A stretch of 64,000 nucleotides of DNA from assembly GCA_035373625.1 (NCBI GenBank), contig DAOSNS010000002.1:189301-253300 (forward strand), in the 5' to 3' direction. The stretch is from Anaerolineae bacterium. GTDB lineage: Bacteria > Chloroflexota > Anaerolineae > B4-G1 > SLSP01. Position 1 is the first letter of the stretch. Every line of letters starts with the position of its first letter. Under the pieces are notes generated by a model that had not been told where the DNA came from, ran no database searches, and saw nothing but the letters and a program-made list of their open reading frames with translations. Below, in pieces: positions 5,225-17,355 of the stretch. A program made the translations under genes and the position numbers.

Positions 5225-6016
5225 GTGTGTAATCGGTGGGATGTGACAATGATGAACAAGAATGTTGTCAGCGCCGATCCCTGGGCCATAGGATGGCTCA
5301 TGCGGTCGCTTGTTTTGCTCGCCGTCCTGGCGGCCTTTGGGGTCCCCTTGGGGGTGATTCCCATTGTGGCGGTGACATCCCCGGTGGAGAAGGAAACCGC
5401 GCAAGCCGATGGGCGGATCGTCATTCCCCTGAGCACTTCCGCGCCAACCCCCACCGTAGCCCCGTTGACCCCCGTACCGCATACCCCGCACGTCGGCATC
5501 ATTGCCGGCCATCACGGCAACGATAGTGGCGCTCTCTGCCCGGACGGTTTGCAGGAGGCGGATATTAACCTCGATGTAGCGCGGCGGGTGGTGGCATTGC
5601 TGATGCAATACGGCTGGAATGTTGACCTGTTAGATGAATTTGACGTGCGCTTGAACGACTACAAAGCAGATGCCTTGCTCTCCATTCATGCCGATTCTTG
5701 TAGCTTTCCGGGGAAATCCGGCTTCAAAATCACACGCGCCGAATCTGGCCTGCATGTCTCTTCTGCGGATGCCCTGGTGGATTGTATCATCCGCCATTAT
5801 GCCGGGCGCACCGGCCTGGCGTTTGACGCGGACACCATCACATACGATATGACCCGCTATCATGCTTACTACGAGATTGACCGCAACACCCCGGCTGCGA
5901 TTATCGAAATCGGCTTTATGCTGGATGACCGCGAACTTTTGACGCAGCGCCCTGACGTTGTCGCGCAGGGCATCGCGGATGGCCTGCGCTGCTTCATTGT
6001 CGGCGAAACCCCTTGA
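5225..6016 (+). CDS. N-acetylmuramoyl-L-alanine amidase (Amidase_3 family) with an N-terminal membrane anchor
   Basis: 263 aa. N-terminal TM segment, then 'GIIAGHHGND...LSIHADS' and an 'EIGFM' C-terminal block typical of MurNAc-LAA (Amidase_3) catalytic domains. Confidence 0.65.
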   Translation: MCNRWDVTMMNKNVVSADPWAIGWLMRSLVLLAVLAAFGVPLGVIPIVAVTSPVEKETAQADGRIVIPLSTSAPTPTVAPLTPVPHTPHVGIIAGHHGNDSGALCPDGLQEADINLDVARRVVALLMQYGWNVDLLDEFDVRLNDYKADALLSIHADSCSFPGKSGFKITRAESGLHVSSADALVDCIIRHYAGRTGLAFDADTITYDMTRYHAYYEIDRNTPAAIIEIGFMLDDRELLTQRPDVVAQGIADGLRCFIVGETP

Positions 6017-7722: not shown

Positions 7723-9543
<1,821 letters not shown>

Positions 9544-9549
9544 GACGCC

Positions 9550-10746
9550 ATGCAGATCGAAGTCTTGAAACAGCACCTTAAACAGCGCACCGGCTGTGCC
9601 GACCGGGACATTTGGATTGTCTACGCACCCTTGCGAATTTCACCGCTCGGCGCGCATGTGGATCACCAGGATGGTCTGGTGACGGGGATGACGTTGAACC
9701 GGGCGATTCTATTGGCCTTCACGCCACGTGCCGACCGACGTGTATGTGTGGAGAGCCTGAATTTCCCCGGGCGCGTGGAATTTGCCCTGGACGACGTACC
9801 GCTCAAATCGGCGAAAGACTGGGGCAACTATGTGCGTGGCGCGGCGCTGGCTTTGCAGCAACATTACACCCTGCACACCGGCATTGATGCGGTGGTGGGT
9901 GGGGATATGCCCATCGGGGGCTTAAGTTCCTCGGCGGCGGTGGGCGTGGCGTATCTGCTGGCCCTGGAGACGGTGAATGGCTTGATGCTTTCCGCCGGGG
10001 AAAACATCCAGCTCGACCGTTACATTGAAAATATCTACCTGGGATTGAAGAACGGCATCATGGATCAGTCCATGATCCTGATGAGTGAGCATGACACGCT
10101 CACCTACCTGGATTGTCAGGCGGTGGCCTTTGAGAAGATTCCCATTCCGCCAGACAAGAACGGCTTTGATATCCTGGTGGTCTATTCCGGCGTGGAACAG
10201 GCGCTGGTGGGCACGGACTACAACAACCGCGTGGCCGAGTGCCAGGAAGCCGCGCGACTGCTGCTCACCTGGGCCGGCGAGCAACCACCGGAGCATCCAC
10301 GCCTGCGTATGGTGCCGGAGGCCGTATATGCTGAATTGGGAGAGCGTCTCCCGGCGCCGTTAAATCGGCGGGCGCGGCACTTCTTCACCGAAGTCGCGCG
10401 CGTGCGCGAGGGCGTTGTGGCCTGGCGTGCGGGCGACGTAACGCGCATCGGTCAGTTGATGCGTGAATCGGGCGCCAGTTCGATCCATAACTACGAATCG
10501 GGTTGTCCGCAGTTGGTGACGCTTTATAACATTCTGTGTGCGGCCCCCGGCGTGTACGGCGCGCGTTTCAGCGGTGCAGGCTTCCGGGGCAGTTGCATCG
10601 GCCTGAGCGATCCGGCCTACCGGGAAGAGATTCGGGCCTTCATTGATGCGCGGTATCCGGCGGCCCATCCCAACGCGGCAGCGCACTACAGCGTGCATTT
10701 TTGCAAGTCCGATGGGCCGGCGCGGGTGTTGAACGGAGGCCTTTAG
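9550..10746 (+). CDS. GHMP-family sugar kinase (galactokinase-like)
   Basis: 398 aa. N-terminal galactokinase-like signature 'PLRISPLGAHVDHQDG'. GHMP ATP motif 'PIGGLSSSAAVGVA'. Confidence 0.7.
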   Translation: MQIEVLKQHLKQRTGCADRDIWIVYAPLRISPLGAHVDHQDGLVTGMTLNRAILLAFTPRADRRVCVESLNFPGRVEFALDDVPLKSAKDWGNYVRGAALALQQHYTLHTGIDAVVGGDMPIGGLSSSAAVGVAYLLALETVNGLMLSAGENIQLDRYIENIYLGLKNGIMDQSMILMSEHDTLTYLDCQAVAFEKIPIPPDKNGFDILVVYSGVEQALVGTDYNNRVAECQEAARLLLTWAGEQPPEHPRLRMVPEAVYAELGERLPAPLNRRARHFFTEVARVREGVVAWRAGDVTRIGQLMRESGASSIHNYESGCPQLVTLYNILCAAPGVYGARFSGAGFRGSCIGLSDPAYREEIRAFIDARYPAAHPNAAAHYSVHFCKSDGPARVLNGGL

Positions 10747-10802
10747 CTGTCAGCTTTCAGCGATCAGCTATGAGCAGGTAGCCTCGTGGTGGAGAATTAG
10801 GT

Positions 10803-11254
10803 ATGCGCGAATCCTACAGAACGGCGACAGAGGAAGAGCTACACTTCTATCGTCAGGTCGTTTATCCGTTGCAAGACCGGGTCTTTGCGTTGACGCCACC
10901 CTATGGCGAACAACTGTATCTGACCGGCGAGACGGCCCTTTCGCGTTTCTACTTTAACCACCTGATGGTGGGGTATACCCGGATGTGACGCCGCCCCAGA
11001 CGTTAGACACATTTGCCGAGCGGGTGGAGTTCATCGCGCGGTTGTGTGCTGCCTGGGATTTCGGACGGTTGCCAGATGTGGCCGTCGTCAACGAAATCCG
11101 CAAGGAGACATGGCGTGAAGCGGTAGATGCATGCCGGTTGTTGACTTCGCCGGTCTATCACCTTTTGCGTCGCTGGCATGGATTGCCGGCGTCGCCCTAT
11201 CTGGGCCGGCAGTTGGCGTACATTCGGGATGATCCGAATCTGGCGTATGTGTGA
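10803..11254 (+). pseudogene. Two short ORFs in different frames; possibly a frameshifted remnant of one gene (the N-terminus faintly resembles an AbiEii/DUF1814 nucleotidyltransferase)
   Basis: A 61-aa ORF runs directly into an 89-aa ORF in another frame. 'LYLTGETALSRFYFNH' is weakly like the AbiEii N-terminal motif. Very uncertain. Confidence 0.2.
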
Positions 11255-11283
11255 GGGGCAATGGACATTTCTGACAAGGACGG

Positions 11284-11400
11284 GGGGCATCGAGGTCTAC
11301 AGCGACGCCGGGGACGTGACGTTGTTGTGGGGGGCTTGTCAGATTAACGATTGTGGTTAGAATGAGAGTGAGCTGAACAAGTCGAGACATTTCACTTACC
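11284..11400 (+). repeat. Copy 1 of a repeated segment: C-terminal coding fragment of a DUF3782-like paralog (GIEVYSDAGDVTL) plus a conserved ~75-bp 3' flank
   Basis: Near-identical to 13663-13754 ('...taacgattgYggttagaatgagagtgagctgaacaagtcgagacaYttcRcttacc'). The coding part also matches the 3' end of the intact gene at 12527-12564. Confidence 0.65.
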
Positions 11401-11467
11401 TTGCGAAGTAGGGCTTGGTGGGTAGACTTGTAGGGCGGGTGCGATGGTCACTCACAGGGAGAGCACA

Positions 11468-11596
11468 ATGACACCGCTCGAAGTGGACACATTGGAACGG
11501 GTGATCGTCACAGAATTGCCGCGCTGGATCGCGGAATATCCTGCCTTGCATGTGCCATTACGGCTTTGTTTGTCTAGCCGCCGGGGCGTGATATAA
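11468..11596 (+). pseudogene. N-terminal fragment (42 codons) of a DUF3782-like paralog
   Basis: 'MTPLEVDTLERVIVTELPRWIAEYP' parallels the N-terminus of the intact copy ('LSQLIRRELPGILRRDREM'). Ends prematurely. Confidence 0.35.
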
Positions 11597-11808
11597 TGCC
11601 TATCGCTGATCGCTGTGCACTAGCATGGCAGCGTTGAGGTTGTTTAATCGGCGCTGATGGAAGCCGATACTGTGCCCACCCATCTGAATAACGAGTACGG
11701 CCGGGAAGCGTAGACGCCACTGCACGAAGGGATTGCGCAGACGGAGGGGCAAGTCAGGCAGGACGGGGGGAATTATAAGCTGTATGGCTTTAGGGGCCAG
11801 GATGCGCT

Positions 11809-12564
11809 ATGGAGAACCAACAATTGTCCCAATTGATCCGCCGGGAACTGCCGGGGATTCTGCGGCGCGACCGTGAGATGCGCGAGTGGGTCTTGAGTTT
11901 GACGCGCGAACGTTACGCGGACAAAGGCGAGACCGAAAGCCGCTTCGACCGGCTGCTGGAAGAACTACGCCGCGACCGAGAAGAGAATACCCGCAAGTGG
12001 GAGGAACAGAACCGTAGGTGGGAGGAGCAGAACCGCAAGTGGGAGGAGCAGAACCGTAGGTGGGAGGAGCAAAACCGCAAGTGGGAGGAGCAGAACCGCA
12101 AGTGGGACGAGAATCAGGCGACGATTAACGCGATGCTTGCCGAAATTCACGCCTTATCGCGGAAACACGATAGCACGATTGGCGCATTAGGCGCGCGCTG
12201 GGGCCTGCAAACTGAGCAATCTTTCCGCAATGCGTTGGCCGGGATTCTGGGATCTTCCTTTGGCGTCGAAGTATTGAATGTGACGGAATACGACGACGCG
12301 GGCGAAGTCTTTGGGCGGCCTGACCAGGTGGAATTGGACGTGATTATCCAGAATGGCTTATTGCTGCTCTGCGAAATCAAGTCATCTATGAGCAAATCGG
12401 ATATGGTCATCTTTGAGCGGAAAGTGCGCTTCTATGAAAAACGACACAACCGGAAGGCTGACCGGATCCTAGTGATCTCGCCGATGGTTGATGCGAGCGC
12501 CCGCGCGCTCGCAAACGAATTGGGTATTGAGGTTTACAGCTACGCCGAGGACGTGACACTGTAG
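11809..12564 (+). CDS. DUF3782-like protein: N-terminal coiled-coil with heptad tandem repeats and a C-terminal PD-(D/E)XK-like nuclease-fold domain
   Basis: 251 aa. Six or more copies of W-E-E-Q-N-R-K/R. C-terminal 'ELDVIIQNGLLLLCEIKSS' is an E-x-D...E-x-K-like arrangement. Family assignment from memory. Confidence 0.55.
   Translation: MENQQLSQLIRRELPGILRRDREMREWVLSLTRERYADKGETESRFDRLLEELRRDREENTRKWEEQNRRWEEQNRKWEEQNRRWEEQNRKWEEQNRKWDENQATINAMLAEIHALSRKHDSTIGALGARWGLQTEQSFRNALAGILGSSFGVEVLNVTEYDDAGEVFGRPDQVELDVIIQNGLLLLCEIKSSMSKSDMVIFERKVRFYEKRHNRKADRILVISPMVDASARALANELGIEVYSYAEDVTL
11995..12120 (+). repeat. 21-bp tandem repeat x6 (coding; AAGTGGGAGGAGCAGAACCGY-type units) inside the DUF3782-like gene
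   Basis: Seen directly. Units alternate aagtgggaggaRcaRaaccgY / aggtgggaggagcaRaaccgc. Confidence 0.85.
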
Positions 12565-12855
12565 CTGCTTCGGTGGGATGGGGACCGCAGTAGGGTGACG
12601 CTTGACATCTCCGGCAAGCAGGTCGGCATTTGCTACGTGGGAGGGCCGGTGGACGTGCACTCGCGCAATTTCAGCAAGGCGCGGACCAGGCTGCGCGGGG
12701 GGATCAGGCAGACGTATGCGTGGGTGGCGGGGTGGGTAAGGCAGTTTGCGGTATAGTGAAGTGTTGCGGGCTGTGACTATGCATAGGATGGGACGCTAGA
12801 CGTGTTATAGTAACCGAGTGTGCACGGGAGTTGCAGATAGAGACCCGGAGGGAAT

Positions 12856-13128
12856 ATGGACACGCAAGGCGCGAATGAAACACGGGCTGCAAATACATTG
12901 GTGATTCCAATCGAAATGGATTTGTCCGAAGCTAAATTGCTGGAAGCCTTTCGGCGATTGTCAGCTAAACGGCGGGCGGACTTGCTCGATAAACTGCAAA
13001 CACTCCGTGAACCGATTTTACGAACGGTATCGGCTAACACCTTGTATCGCTTAACGGCCTTGGTGTCATTAGGGGGTGATGCTATGGCCGATGCAGAGGC
13101 GTTGTACGATGGTAGTAATGGCAATTGA
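12856..13128 (+). CDS. Putative antitoxin partner of the downstream PIN toxin
   Basis: 90-aa ORF whose stop overlaps the PIN start (ATGGCAATTGA). Position and size fit a type II antitoxin. No recognisable motif. Confidence 0.35.
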   Translation: MDTQGANETRAANTLVIPIEMDLSEAKLLEAFRRLSAKRRADLLDKLQTLREPILRTVSANTLYRLTALVSLGGDAMADAEALYDGSNGN

Positions 13129-13569
13129 TACGAATGTGTTGGTCGGTTTGCTAGATGACAACGACAAGTGGCACACCTTCTCGGTGGCTTTGCGGGATGC
13201 ATTATATGAAGCCGGAGTAGGTTGATCTATTTTGATTGCGTGGTCAATGAAACTGTTAGTGTGTTGGTGCGACGCATTTATGAGCAACAACGCCTTGAGC
13301 AATTGTGTCCATTGTTGGATCAACTACACGAGTGTGTGCCGGTGTGCGACATGACGTGGATTGCTGGAGAGAGTAAACGCTTCTATGCCGAGATTATGCG
13401 TTTGGTGCGTAATTCGTCCGGGAAGTTGAACTATCATGATGCGCTGCTTGCGTTAATTTGTTGTGAACAAGGTGTAGACGCTTTAGTGAGTTTTGATCGA
13501 GACTTTGATGAGTTGGATTGGCTGACGCGCATTGAGCAGGCTTCTCAAGTAGCAGCATTGCTAACCTAG
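13118..13569 (+). pseudogene. PIN-domain (VapC-like) toxin gene interrupted by a frameshift near 13220
   Basis: N-terminal part 'MAIDTNVLVGLLDDNDKWH...' (frame 2) stops at 13223. The remainder, 'IYFDCVVNETV...YHDALLALICCEQGVDALVSFDRDF' (PIN C-terminal acidic residues), continues in frame 1 from 13222. Confidence 0.5.
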
Positions 13570-13662
13570 ATTCGTCTGCAGTGGATTTATGTGTTCGCGT
13601 GAAAGACGGCGTGCAAACTGGTGAATTCGCCGATGGAGGAGGAACGCGCGCGGAATGTGGCG

Positions 13663-13754
13663 TTGAGGTTTACAGCGACGCCGGGGACGTTGCCAGGCTA
13701 ACGATTGCGGTTAGAATGAGAGTGAGCTGAACAAGTCGAGACACTTCGCTTACC
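13663..13754 (+). repeat. Copy 2 of the DUF3782-like C-terminal fragment plus conserved 3' flank
   Basis: See copy 1 at 11284-11400. Roughly 90% identity over the shared part, judged by eye. Confidence 0.65.
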
Positions 13755-13870
13755 TTTTTCCTGGCGCGGTTTGATCGTTATCAAATTGAGGGACGGTATC
13801 CCGATTTATTACCGGTTGCGCCGAGTGTCGCTGTAGTGCGCGCCGAATTGGCCCAAGCACAGGAGATCTT
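13745..13870 (+). pseudogene. C-terminal remnant of a HEPN-domain gene, truncated at its 5' side by the repeat copy
   Basis: Frame reads '...FLARFDRYQIEGRYPDLLPVAPSVAVVRAELAQAQEIFEWLNQQL', the typical HEPN C-terminal end with no N-terminal half present. Confidence 0.45.
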
Positions 13871-13873
13871 CGA

Positions 13874-14206
13874 ATGGTTGAACCAGCAATTACCAGGGGG
13901 GTGCAGGATTACCTGTGTGCTGTGCGGCAAGCCGGAATATTGGCGCGGTATGCAGTCCTGTTTGGTTCGCACGCACGCGGCGATGCCTGCCCAGATAGCG
14001 ACATTGACTTACTGGTTGTTACGCCGGAGTTCGATGGGCTGTATGATCGTCGTCAGGTCGATCTCCTGTGGGCCTTGCGTGCCTTTACTGATAGCCGCAT
14101 TGAACCCATTGCCGTGGGCGAGCAGCGTTGGCGCGACGATGATGCCAGTCCGCTCCTGGAAATTGCGCGGCGGGAGGGACAGGAAATTGCCGTCGCATCG
14201 GTGTGA
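13874..14206 (+). CDS. Minimal nucleotidyltransferase (MNT) domain protein
   Basis: 110 aa. 'AVLFGSHARGDACPDSDIDLLVV' is the GS...DxD nucleotidyltransferase motif. Confidence 0.75.
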   Translation: MVEPAITRGVQDYLCAVRQAGILARYAVLFGSHARGDACPDSDIDLLVVTPEFDGLYDRRQVDLLWALRAFTDSRIEPIAVGEQRWRDDDASPLLEIARREGQEIAVASV

Positions 14207-14213
14207 GATGCAA

Positions 14214-14895
14214 TCAGTTGCATATTACCTTAAACGTGAGCCAACTACCATCCCGCTGGCGCTTGCGCCGCGTCACAGCCAGTTGCCCGCAGCCACGGTA
14301 ATGGAGTGTCGTGGGAATCTGGGTACTATCCACCGCCGCCATCACCTGCGCGGGAAAGAGGTGTGCGGCTGCCAGCAACTGGATCGTCCCGTTGAAGAGG
14401 TCCGCCAGTACGGCCGCGCCGGCTTTACAGATGGTACTGGCCAAGGTCTGCGGATCCATCAACACGTATAGGTGCGCCCCTGTGCGCTGTGCTGCGCCGC
14501 GCTATGTCATCCGGTGTTCTACCAGATACGCATTGAAACCGATCAATGTCATCACTGCGACATTGCTGAACAGCAGCGCGGGAAGCGTGTTCGTGGAGTC
14601 GATCCCCAAGAGGATGCGCGTGCCGTAGAGCAGTACGAAATAGATGGCTGGTAGAAACACACGGTAGACGTGGGCAATGGTGAAGGTCTGCCAATGTTCC
14701 AAGATAGGCAACTCACGCAAGAACACGAAGAAGCCATCCAGCAAGCCAGCTTCATCCAAGGTATGCACCGTGTCTGTGGCTTGCCCTTGATAGATGGCCT
14801 GAGCGACACCCTGGTCATCCCGTTCGGCGAAACGCTAGTCCAGATTCTCAGCCAAGTTGTTGCGGATATCGGCAGCGGTTTGCGCCCGTTGTGTC
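14214..14895 (-). pseudogene. Degraded gene of unknown function: a start with ribosome-binding site at 14895, an in-frame stop after about 20 codons, and the remainder spread over two frames
   Basis: Minus-strand reading gives 'MTQRAQTAADIRNNLAENLD*' and then further ORF pieces ('...HTLDEAGLLDGFFVFLRELPILEHW...', 'MLMDPQTLAST...'). No family recognised. Confidence 0.25.
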
Positions 14896-15010
14896 ATCGT
14901 TCTCCTCACACCGACAAGATACTGAGGCTATATCACAAATTGCCAGCTATGATCCAAATGTTAATGTGCTATCCTTCACTATTAATGCAAATTATTATAC
15001 CGTAATTTTA

Positions 15011-15961
15011 GTAGGAGTAACCCAAGTTGCTACTCACTGAACTTAAGCGGAAAAACCAGGACAAATAGAAAGACTTTGAGTTCAAAGCCAGCAGCGGTCA
15101 CGGCATGAATAGATTTCGGCAGGAGTTGTTCAATCAAGCTGCCTGCTGTTTCCACCTTTTTACGATGCAGATTTTGGAGGTAGCGGATCCACGGCGGGAG
15201 GGGCCGTTTGGAATTTGCTTTGCGCATCGGGAGGAACTCCGAACCCGCTAAGCCATCGACATTGGCGAAATCGTCCTCAAAGTCGTAATCGGTATAGCCG
15301 CGATCGGCGTAAATGGTCGAACCCGCGGGCAAGTCAAAGGCAAAGTCTTCCAGCGTGCTCACATCCGCTACGGACCCGGGCGTGAGAAAGACTTCGACTG
15401 GCAGACCATCTTGGGTGACGAGTAAATGCACTTTGACACTGTAAAAGTAGCGTTTTTTACTGGCGCAGTACCCGCGATAGGTCTCATCGTGATAAATCTT
15501 GGCCCGGCGGATGCGGATATTGTCACACACCGCCACCGGGAACGAGTCGATGCTATAGATCGAGTCCGTGTTCAACGTTTTCCAGTAATCGGCTAAAGCG
15601 CCAAATATGCACCAGAACAGCCCCGCCAGGCGCTGTAAACGCCGACTAAAGCGACTGGGGCCGAGCATCTTGGGCATATAACCGTGTTCATGCAGCATCT
15701 TACAAGCCGCGGCGTAGTTACCGTCGAAAAACATGGCCGCGGTCAGGGCGGCGGTCATGACTTCGGCGTCGCTCATTTGGCACTGCGGGTCTTCATAATG
15801 ATGCAACCCTTTCAAGATATCATCACAAATGCAGAAAGCGGCTATAATTTGCGTATCCATGGATTCCCTCCGGTTTAGTCTTGGATTGTTCACCCGTAAC
15901 TATACCGCGGAATCCATGATTTTCTACTCTTTTCATAAGGTAGCAACTTGGGTTAGGAGTA
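15011..15961 (-). mobile_element. Intact insertion sequence (~950 bp): single DDE transposase ORF, 14-16-bp terminal inverted repeats and an 8-bp target-site duplication
   Basis: Left end TAGGAGTA|ACCCAAGTTGCTAC... and right end ...GTAGCAACTTGGGT|TAGGAGTA. The inverted repeat and flanking direct repeat TAGGAGTA were read directly. Confidence 0.7.
15030..15893 (-). CDS. DDE transposase (IS4/IS5-superfamily, IS982-like size)
   Basis: 287 aa. '...STIYADRGYTDYDFEDD...' DxGY-type motif. Sits between the inverted repeats. Confidence 0.7.
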   Translation of the reverse strand: MNNPRLNRRESMDTQIIAAFCICDDILKGLHHYEDPQCQMSDAEVMTAALTAAMFFDGNYAAACKMLHEHGYMPKMLGPSRFSRRLQRLAGLFWCIFGALADYWKTLNTDSIYSIDSFPVAVCDNIRIRRAKIYHDETYRGYCASKKRYFYSVKVHLLVTQDGLPVEVFLTPGSVADVSTLEDFAFDLPAGSTIYADRGYTDYDFEDDFANVDGLAGSEFLPMRKANSKRPLPPWIRYLQNLHRKKVETAGSLIEQLLPKSIHAVTAAGFELKVFLFVLVFPLKFSE

Positions 15962-15963
15962 AT

Positions 15964-17355
15964 ATGATAAACGATAATATTAAACAGGTTATTGATGGCG
16001 GTTATTGCATTGGTTGTGGTGCTTGTGCGGCCTTGCCAAATTCTCTTTTTGTAATGGAAATAAATCAGTATGGGCAGTTAATGGCAGTTGATCGTGGTGA
16101 TTTATCTAATGAGACATTTTCTACAAACTTGGATGTTATTTGCCCTTTTTCTAATAAAGCACCTGATGAAAATACGATAGCCCGGGCACTGTTTGGCGGT
16201 GTGATACCTTATGATGAATATGCCGGCTACTACCAAGATATTTATGCCGGATATGTAATAGAGGACGATTATCGAAAAAACGGTAGTTCTGGGGGGAGTG
16301 TTTCTTGGTTAGCAGCAGAACTGATCCAGTTAGGATTAGTAGATGGTATTATCCATGTAAAATCTCTGGAAAACAATCCTTCGCGTTTGTTTGGCTATGC
16401 TATTTCAACAAGCGTAGAGCAAGCCAGGCAAGGGGCTAAGTCTAAATATTACCCGATAGAAATGTCAGAAGTTATAAAATTGGTACGAGAGCAGCCAGGA
16501 CGTTATGCTTTTGTAGGGTTGCCCTGCTTTGTGAAAGCGGCGCGATTATTAACTCGAAATGATCCTGTTTTGGCAGAACGAATAGTATTTTTTATTGGAT
16601 TAGTTTGTGGACATTTAAAGAGTACAAAGTTTGCAGAAATGTTAGCTTGGCAGTGCGGAATTGCGCCTGAAAAGCTGGATTATATTGATTTCCGAGTCAA
16701 ATTGCCGGAATATCCCGCTAATAAATACGGTATACGAGTGCGATCTGGATCAGTGGATTATTCTATGACACAACCTGTTGATAATTTATTCGGTAGTAGT
16801 TGGGGATTGGGGTTTTTCCGCTATAAGGCCTGTGATTATTGTGATGATGTTGTTGCGGAAACTGCAGATGTTACTATTGGAGATGCCTGGCTCTCGCGTT
16901 ATATAAAAGACAGCGCGGGAACTAATTTGATCATTGTACGAAATCCGATCTTATCTGAAGTAATCGGAGATGCAGTTCGGACATCTAGGTTGAAATTAGA
17001 TGAATTGTCTGTGAGTGATGTTTACCATTCTCAGGCGGGTGGATTCCGCCACAGACGAGACGGACTGGGGTATCGCCTTTACTTGGCGGATTCTGAGCAT
17101 ATATGGCGTCCAACAAAGCGTGTTCAACCTCATGATGGAAAACGATTTGGTAGACGTTGGCGCCAAAAGCAGCGATTGCGAGTACAGATGGCAGAACAAA
17201 GCCATTTGGCTTTCCACGAAGCCGCTATTCAAGGTGATTTTGATGTCTTTAAACGGCAGATGCAGCCTCTATTAGATGCCTATTTAAAGGTTGCGCGACC
17301 GACATTAGGGCAGCGAATCTCTTATGTCTTAAAGAAACTAAAATTGAGACCATGA
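15964..17355 (+). CDS. Coenzyme F420 hydrogenase/dehydrogenase beta-subunit-like (FrhB-family) Fe-S protein, the type usually paired with polysaccharide pyruvyl transferases
   Basis: N-terminal 'CIGCGACAALP' cysteine cluster. About 460 aa. Immediately upstream of a pyruvyl transferase gene. The start was moved to the ATG at 15964, just outside the IS end; the ORF track start at 15829 lies inside the IS. Confidence 0.6.
   Translation: MINDNIKQVIDGGYCIGCGACAALPNSLFVMEINQYGQLMAVDRGDLSNETFSTNLDVICPFSNKAPDENTIARALFGGVIPYDEYAGYYQDIYAGYVIEDDYRKNGSSGGSVSWLAAELIQLGLVDGIIHVKSLENNPSRLFGYAISTSVEQARQGAKSKYYPIEMSEVIKLVREQPGRYAFVGLPCFVKAARLLTRNDPVLAERIVFFIGLVCGHLKSTKFAEMLAWQCGIAPEKLDYIDFRVKLPEYPANKYGIRVRSGSVDYSMTQPVDNLFGSSWGLGFFRYKACDYCDDVVAETADVTIGDAWLSRYIKDSAGTNLIIVRNPILSEVIGDAVRTSRLKLDELSVSDVYHSQAGGFRHRRDGLGYRLYLADSEHIWRPTKRVQPHDGKRFGRRWRQKQRLRVQMAEQSHLAFHEAAIQGDFDVFKRQMQPLLDAYLKVARPTLGQRISYVLKKLKLRP

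Follow-up and report, generated by a model that had tools for sequence, protein, structure and literature searches.

What is the non-coding segment of about 74 nt that follows two fragments of a DUF3782 gene, one on either side of an intact DUF3782 gene, in a 64-kb stretch of DNA (the window) from an uncultivated Anaerolineae bacterium of anaerobic digesters? The segment had been proposed to be the terminus of a small mobile unit or a structured RNA, and the intact gene to encode a phase- or length-variable nuclease. The region of interest extends from 10.8 to 14.2 kb of the window, and the contigs and loci compared with the window are referred to by L-numbers (L001, L007, L011 and so on). This region is probably a gene-turnover islet that holds one intact DUF3782/PDDEXK_10 gene and two eroded duplicates of a gene end together with a promoter-bearing spacer. 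The finding is real but ordinary: the intact gene, which lies in a pseudogene-rich islet, belongs to a coiled-coil nuclease family that is known but uncharacterised.

A duplicated gene end and its spacer

The arrangement of the two fragments was not an artefact of assembly, an objection that the original prediction had raised against itself. Positions 9001–16000 of the window were 100% identical in three independent assemblies spanning both copies (L001 from ENA; L002 and L003 from JGI). In addition, two Logan contigs ended at 11360 and 13738, inside an identical 35-mer, as is expected of a genuine repeat. A database look-up found the exact 251-amino acid protein of the intact gene in 14 contigs from at least six samples, and one source labeled it as 'MAG TPA: DUF3782 domain-containing protein [Anaerolineae bacterium]', where MAG stands for metagenome-assembled genome.

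Relic A (11286–11324, plus strand) comprises the final 13 codons of a DUF3782 gene (GIEVYSDAGDVTL); a mutation has turned the stop codon into TTG. Its identities to the 3' ends of the intact genes in L007, L011 and L012 were 85–91%. Relic C (approximately 13618–13697, plus strand) consists of about the last 27 codons (...GVEVYSDAGDVA) and contains a 13-nt deletion and a frameshift. Both had been described as C-terminal fragments with the same ending. Both are indeed DUF3782 relics, but relic C does not end with DVTL; the deletion and the frameshift lie upstream, and a 19-nt indel distinguishes it from relic A. As predicted, both relics are followed by a shared segment of ~74 nt, of which copy A (11329–11402) matches copy C (13683–13756), both on the plus strand, and the segment is absent downstream of the intact gene. 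The 35-nt identical core of the segment occurred exactly twice in the window and in none of 100 shuffles.

In a gapped alignment, A (11286–11402) and C (13659–13756) showed nine mismatches among 98 aligned nucleotides and the single 19-nt indel, an identity of 91%. All nine substitutions were transitions. The coding relic (3/31) and the segment (6/67) had diverged equally, so that the higher conservation of the segment suggested by an ungapped comparison (95 vs. 76% for the relic) was discarded. Moreover, both relics contain SDAGD where the intact family members contain SYAED. The shared SDAGD and the gapped alignment thus identify A and C as each other's closest relatives and as copies of one duplicated unit, whose divergence is uniform along its length. 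Upstream, the DUF3782 homology reaches to ~13618 in C but stops short in A. Downstream, A continues into a leader and a 42-codon open reading frame (ORF), whereas C is fused at 13756 to codon 80 of a HEPN gene. The part that they share is the intersection of two differently eroded copies. The paralog decay that had been postulated for this locus was therefore borne out by two relics that lie beside the intact gene, in units that are 91% identical, among AbiEii, epimerase, PIN and HEPN pseudogenes.

Each copy of the segment contains a promoter-like block of the sigma70 type, for which -35 and -10 hexamers spaced by 16–18 nt were required. The scan identified TTGTCA-N16-TAGAAT in copy A (11336–11363) and TTGCCA-N16-TAGAAT in copy C (13690–13717), each with 10 of the 12 consensus positions. 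This block is conserved in one other species. At L011, a syntenic locus of a Chloroflexota MAG, a stretch of 48 nt (5859–5906) that includes TTGCCA-GATTAACGATTTCGGT-TAGAAT (within 5865–5906) aligned with the window at 81% identity. The block of L011 is preceded by a truncated Uma2 gene, not by a DUF3782 3' end, and an intact DUF3782 gene of 280 amino acids starts ~95 nt after it (at 6001). The sequences flanking this block do not align with the window. The conservation between species covers the block from -35 to -10 only; neither the 33 nt downstream of it nor the association with DUF3782 3' ends is conserved. Moreover, the full segment was absent from ~90 loci (~600 kb) with DUF3782 relatives. 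Because the -35/-10 block alone is conserved elsewhere, where it precedes a DUF3782 gene and does not follow one, the segment is better read, as far as its sequence goes, as the spacer and putative promoter region of whatever gene lay downstream.

According to the explanation that we favor, a module composed of a DUF3782 gene, a short spacer and a downstream nuclease gene would have been duplicated once and would be the source of both fragments. Separate deletions, the order of which is presumed, would then have trimmed each copy of the module. Their surviving overlap would comprise the last 13 codons, the spacer with its sigma70-type promoter (TTGYCA-16-TAGAAT) and a transcribed leader of ~33 nt. 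Copy A would now face the 42-codon stub and perhaps also the intact gene, which lies 440 nt further on, and copy C would face an orphaned MNT gene. Several points count against this explanation. It requires one duplication and about four deletions. The region contained three promoter-like sites, compared with a shuffled expectation of 2.3 ± 2.1, and a single sequence outside the window, that of L011, carries the block. The comparison of A with C gives no sign of selection that maintains the segment, as relic and segment are equally diverged. Further copies of the segment may exist elsewhere in the genome; neither the genome nor the metagenome collection scanned includes this organism. Finally, the assignment of the stub to a nuclease family is statistically weak.

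This stub is a 42-amino acid ORF (11468–11596, plus strand) with an ELPxW helix and a GGGAG ribosome-binding site upstream, and had been taken for the N-terminal fragment of yet another DUF3782 copy. Against hidden Markov models (HMMs) of DUF3782 N-termini it gave E values of 0.7 (close homologs) and 0.035 (broader set), and it ranked second among 1420 window ORFs, after the intact gene. A database homolog search with the 50-amino acid stub ORF found none but itself. Its best single match, with 40% identity over 35 residues, was the 58-amino acid N-terminal extension of an intact Uma2-family nuclease (L028:1723–2508; Pfam Uma2, E 6e-35). The resemblance to DUF3782 was thus confirmed as a weak one, but the best single match is the extension of a Uma2 protein. 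The stub would be the N-terminal remnant of a nuclease gene that was either Uma2-like or DUF3782-like. In L028 (832–2704), a DUF3782 gene is followed after 55 nt by the Uma2 gene and then by a DUF3782 relic, and unit A with the stub looks like the remains of such a DUF3782-then-Uma2 gene pair. An N-terminal helix of the form '(E/R)LPxW...P' seems to be common to DUF3782 and Uma2 proteins. Two different PD-(D/E)XK families may have an N-terminal module in common and travel together. A 5'-truncated Uma2 gene was also observed at the equivalent place of L011 (5438–5779).

Other short C-terminal relics of DUF3782 were observed at L007:7707–7740, L012:9690–9734 (also L024:8708), L028:2624–2704 and L050:6909. 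Those of L007, L012, L028 and L050 lie 1–3 kb past an intact gene, and their boundaries are specific to each locus. Relics of the 3' end seem to recur in this family. Two further candidates were rejected. The sequence AGGACGGGGGG, found at 11277 and 11760, was considered as a deletion junction, but a 13/14 match in 4 kb is close to chance by a rough estimate. Similarly, the C-terminal DPAVFG of the second gene of L016 was considered as a read-through into a segment homolog, but ED(I/V)DPA(I/V)(F/L) is a conserved coding variant found in many family members.

Direct repeats such as A and C could also result from a Campbell-type (single-crossover) integration or from a segmental duplication, either of which would have brought in the 2.3-kb block that contains the intact DUF3782 gene and a VapBC-like pair. 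We consider this unlikely. The repeats do bracket a discrete block, an epimerase 3'-end remnant on either side of the intact gene suggests a duplicated junction, and L007, L012/L024, L028 and L050 have DUF3782 3' relics 1–3 kb past an intact gene. However, the boundaries of these relics vary by locus, so that they share no common attachment site, and the block contains neither an integrase nor a recombinase. With 91% identity and a 19-nt indel between the repeats, such an event, if real, would be old and indistinguishable from the decay of tandem paralogs.

The intact DUF3782/PDDEXK_10 gene and its heptad array

The ORF list and Pfam confirmed the predicted 251-amino acid gene at 11809–12564 (plus strand) and its C-terminal PD-(D/E)XK module. 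DUF3782 (PF12644) matched residues 94–171 over its complete profile (1–78) with 89.1 bits (gathering cut-off 24.4; E 2.2e-25), and PDDEXK_10 (PF07788) matched residues 173–241 with 84 bits (gathering cut-off 21.2; E 7.2e-24). The protein is thus a member of the DUF3782/PDDEXK_10 family. All of the more than 4500 homologs found possess both domains, and their lengths ranged from 223 to 400 amino acids. The PADLOC candidate family C3a181 also matched the full length of the protein (11809–12561; E 4.9e-19). Its description, 'Diadenylate cyclase', misfits a PD-(D/E)XK nuclease and is probably a labeling quirk of the library.

The AlphaFold model of the protein (mean predicted local distance difference test score, pLDDT, of 80.8) consists of two short N-terminal helices, which form an 'ELP' helical module, a single helix over residues 39–121 with a pLDDT of 85–92 over the heptads, and an alpha/beta domain. 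The top PDB folds found by Foldseek for the C-terminal domain were AF1548 and EndoMS/NucS (E about 2e-3, probability 1.0, ~110 aligned residues, root-mean-square deviation 3.3–4.4), and the nuclease domains of Can2 and PaqCI ranked lower. A PDB sequence search matched no chain and returned spurious coiled-coil matches only. Among 40 homologs, E136, D162, E175, D177, E189 and K191 were invariant and P171-D172 were nearly so. With these acidic residues, K191 and the near-invariant P171-D172, the catalytic signature is complete. The protein is predicted to be an endonuclease in which a long stalk of W-x6 heptads links an N-terminal helical module to a PD-(D/E)XK domain, and it would possess nuclease activity.

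In L007 and L012, GGTGGTATAAT lies ~45 nt upstream of the DUF3782 start codon (5930–6000 in each). This -10-like box is missing from the window at 11740–11808 (GACGGGGGGAATTATAAG). The intact gene may depend on a promoter further upstream, such as 11570–11597 or that of segment A.

The stalk is encoded by a 21-bp tandem array of 5.8 copies (11991–12111, plus strand), for which Tandem Repeats Finder gave 88% matches without indels; a repeat finder placed the array in the same register. The array encodes five perfect WEEQNR(K/R) heptads, with the degenerate REENTRK and WDENQAT one on each side, rather than the six or more perfect heptads claimed before. The region that separates the conserved N- and C-terminal modules ranged from 20 to 195 amino acids in the 120 best homologs. 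In homologs that were 94–95% identical in both flanking modules it was 27, 34 or 38 amino acids long, whereas the window protein has 48. Length differences were also seen among DUF3782 genes that occupy the same syntenic position. Slippage or unequal recombination would add or remove in-frame 21-bp units.

Within the sampled population a single array allele was found (14 contigs, at least six samples, and three assemblies identical over 7 kb), as judged from consensus assemblies. Moreover, the 90%-identity cluster of the protein has a single member. The predicted length variability was thus confirmed between close orthologs, with flanks 94–95% identical, but not within the sampled population. 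The array gains and loses in-frame units fast on the timescale of species or strain divergence and is fixed in the sampled population. Nothing shows that the change in length is programmed or adaptive. Since the 21-bp unit is a multiple of three and lies inside the coding sequence, its gain or loss shifts no reading frame and provides no on/off switching. Phase variation was therefore not upheld, and all assemblies recovered carried the identical allele.

It is quite unlikely that the array is a contingency locus, which would make the nuclease phase- or length-variable within a population. Units that are 88% alike with long identical stretches, the difference of several heptads between orthologs with 94–95% identical flanks, and the range of protein lengths in the family (223 to 400 amino acids) are what such a locus would show. 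However, besides the divisibility of the unit by three, the constancy of the exact allele across contigs and samples, the one-member cluster and the 100% identity of the 7-kb region in three assemblies all argue against it, although minority variants could hide behind a consensus.

A doubtful extension of these results is that the length of the stalk is a functionally tuned, rapidly evolving parameter of a ruler-type nuclease, and that an arms race, rather than neutral decay, lies behind the turnover of heptads and paralogs and the repeated association with HEPN-MNT and Uma2 genes. If so, the stalk of W-heptads would fix how far the PD-(D/E)XK head lies from an N-terminal docking module. This module would be the 'ELPxW' helix, which is also present on the neighboring Uma2-family nucleases, and the arms race would concern defense or addiction.

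Mobile-element and RNA readings of the segment

The full segment was absent from a genome collection of 185,579 species (query CAGNNTAACGATTNNGGTTAGAAT), which does not include the window's own genome. The scan returned only the L011 block and one chance match in a low-GC Clostridiaceae genome. Metagenome contigs gave no match to TAACGATTNNGGTTAGAATGNG. This negative has little weight, as the pattern is present in the JGI contigs fetched by protein look-up, so that the scanned collection does not hold this organism. Viral contigs gave no match to either half of the segment. A repeat search found no pair of inverted repeats flanking copy A or copy C, and the flanks contained no target-site duplication. 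An Rfam scan of 9000–16000 found no match at E ≤ 1. Finally, on both strands, the predicted folds of the two copies were no more stable than those of shuffles (z = +0.06 to +0.77), and the same was true of the putative leader and the L011 copy.

On these results, neither proposal for the segment was sustained: the mobile-unit terminus has two copies only, without inverted repeats or target duplication, and is absent from the collections and from the ~90 DUF3782 loci, and the structured RNA lacks both folding stability above that of shuffles and an Rfam match. As the segment was confined to two sites and was not conserved elsewhere in the searches made, both readings are close to refuted on the original prediction's own terms.

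It is very unlikely that the ~117-nt unit of gene end and segment is a small non-autonomous mobile element, or the terminus of one, that was inserted beside AbiEii and into HEPN. Three features would suit an element: the unit is present as two direct copies at a distance of 2.35 kb, copy C ends on the right exactly at the HEPN breakpoint (13756), and an insertion sequence (IS) transposase lies 1.3 kb away (15030–15893). However, the searches described above tell against insertion, and the 64-kb window has just the two copies. Moreover, the left ends are unlike, with longer DUF3782 homology in C than in A, as erosion by deletion would give.

Most improbable of all is a structured or small regulatory RNA, or its variant, an antisense partner of a minus-strand hydrophobic ORF resembling a type I toxin-antitoxin system: although an ORF for SRLVQLTLILT(T/A)IV, preceded by an AAGG motif, starts on the minus strand of both copies, an antisense transcript would arise from the promoter-like block of the plus strand and one A/C difference preserves a possible AGUGA/UC(A/G)CU pairing through a G-U wobble, the folding energies and the Rfam scan oppose it, the minus-strand ORFs are of 100 and ~24 amino acids with only duplicated DNA in common, L011 keeps the -35/-10 block but neither the peptide nor the downstream part, and two copies that are 91% identical cannot reveal covariation. 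The minus-strand ORF starts with ATG in copy A (11355–11392) and with GTG in copy C (13709–13746).

The main value of the analysis is that a finding has been cleared: a conserved-looking non-coding segment beside repeated gene ends is best read as duplicated spacer or putative promoter DNA within a pseudogene mosaic, not as a new mobile element or RNA.

The surrounding islet and known systems

On one side the region is flanked by a conserved sulfate-adenylyltransferase/GHMP-kinase block and on the other by polysaccharide-synthesis genes. In related genomes, the syntenic order is sulfate adenylyltransferase/APS kinase, GHMP kinase, a variable stretch and the polysaccharide-synthesis genes. The loci at the same place (L007, L011, L012, L015, L016 and L019) have one or two DUF3782 genes each, and the DUF3782 proteins in the variable stretches are of 241, 248, 251, 260, 277, 280, 282, 310 and 345 amino acids. 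Depending on the genome, the variable stretch also contains intact AbiEii, NAD-epimerase, Uma2, HEPN-MNT, DUF433/PIN or TumE genes. The window carries the wreckage of genes that are intact at the syntenic loci, in the form of a pseudogene mosaic.

An AbiEii toxin pseudogene (10803–11254, plus strand) is split into two ORFs by an internal deletion. By blastn to related loci, its 5' part was 88% identical to the intact AbiEii gene of L007 and its 3' part 79% identical to L011 5047–5355. By blastn to the NAD-dependent epimerase gene of L007 (4929–5888), one epimerase remnant was found upstream of the intact DUF3782 gene (11646–11743, plus strand) and a second at 12604–12743. A putative antitoxin ORF (90 amino acids) and a frameshifted PIN/VapC-like toxin, recognized from the ORF list, Pfam and NCBIfam, occupy 12856–13569 (plus strand). 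The toxin is split over 13076–13225 and 13222–13569, and its Pfam PIN (E 0.001) and NCBIfam VapC (E 0.007) scores are both under the curated cut-offs.

The truncation of a HEPN gene next to copy C, as originally predicted, is real. The HEPN remnant (13757–13892, plus strand) comprises codons 80–126 of a 128-amino acid protein and is 89% identical in amino acids to the intact HEPN at L017:2592–2978 (Pfam HEPN, E 3.4e-12). The homology begins at codon 80, precisely at the end of segment C (13756), and codons 1–79 are gone. The MNT-type nucleotidyltransferase gene (13874–14206, plus strand), which has lost its HEPN partner, is intact and encodes 110 amino acids (Pfam NTP_transf_2, E 9.9e-10). The protein is 88% identical to the MNT of L017, and its NCBIfam MntA score is 32.5 bits (cut-off 60). 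The HEPN-MNT (type VII) toxin-antitoxin pair of the window is therefore incomplete. At the edge of the islet, 0.8 kb past the MNT gene, lies the minus-strand IS transposase (DDE_Tnp_1/DDE_Tnp_1_3 by Pfam).

HEPN, MNT and DUF3782 genes are repeatedly adjacent, as at L017:2592–4211, L016:12102–13343 and 13618–14206 of the window. In L017 and L018, an intact HEPN-MNT pair is followed by DUF3782. In L016 and the window, a DUF3782 gene or relic is followed by a HEPN remnant and MNT, and the HEPN breakpoints are unlike. Four tandem DUF3782 genes lie within 3.4 kb on one metagenome contig (L047:3304–6655), and two are present in each of L015, L016, L011, L072 and L097. The predicted 'hotspot' is an ordinary fast-turnover toxin-antitoxin or defense islet. 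For the DUF3782 family, this means that its genes are found repeatedly in islets with a fast turnover, next to HEPN-MNT pairs and to genes of Uma2 nucleases. For a nuclease family with more than 4500 homologs, the array means that the length of the stalk shifts by whole heptads among orthologs that are 94–95% identical.

The combination of a coiled coil with a nuclease domain in DUF3782/PDDEXK_10 proteins is already in the literature. Previous results placed DUF1626 in the PD-(D/E)XK superfamily, with an N-terminal coiled coil and with members in Chloroflexus and Roseiflexus (Knizewski et al., 2007; PMC1913061). DUF3782 was described as the coiled-coil stalk of an endonuclease family (Hartmann et al., 2016; PMC4786415), and archaeal HEPN operons that contain MNT and a DUF1626 restriction-endonuclease-like protein were also listed (Anantharaman et al., 2013; PMC3710099). 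The window protein does not differ in any essential way from this family (PF12644 and PF07788, formerly DUF1626, COG5493). Both domains score above the cut-offs, and an N-terminal helical or coiled-coil region is joined to a restriction-endonuclease-like domain as in the members described (PMC1913061; PMC4786415). Chloroflexota genomes contain several paralogs each, and the gene adjoins HEPN/MNT, as reported for archaeal relatives (PMC3710099). The motif III lysine is kept (E189-x-K191), whereas many members have a threonine (PMC1913061). The stalk of the window protein is made of WEEQNR(K/R) heptads, with a single hydrophobic position per heptad. No member of the family with a tested function was found in the literature. 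The resemblance of the C-terminal domain to NucS/EndoMS and AF1548 is one of fold only, with identities of 12–15%, and NucS has an N-terminal dimerization and DNA-binding domain where the window protein has a helical stalk.

The near-identical in-frame 21-bp units, the copy number of which is unlike in close orthologs with 94–95% identical flanks, resemble the length variation of coding tandem repeats known from coiled-coil and stalk proteins. Different from those cases, no variation was seen within the sampled population, and the window protein is a cytoplasmic, nuclease-like protein rather than a surface antigen, with no selective driver known. Similar to other decaying toxin-antitoxin and defense islets, the islet of the window contains AbiEii, PIN and HEPN pseudogenes, an orphan MNT gene and an IS element, and its gene content differs among the syntenic loci of related species. 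Different from them, however, it is embedded in a polysaccharide-biosynthesis locus, where a sugar-nucleotide gene, that of the epimerase, decays together with the toxin-antitoxin genes.

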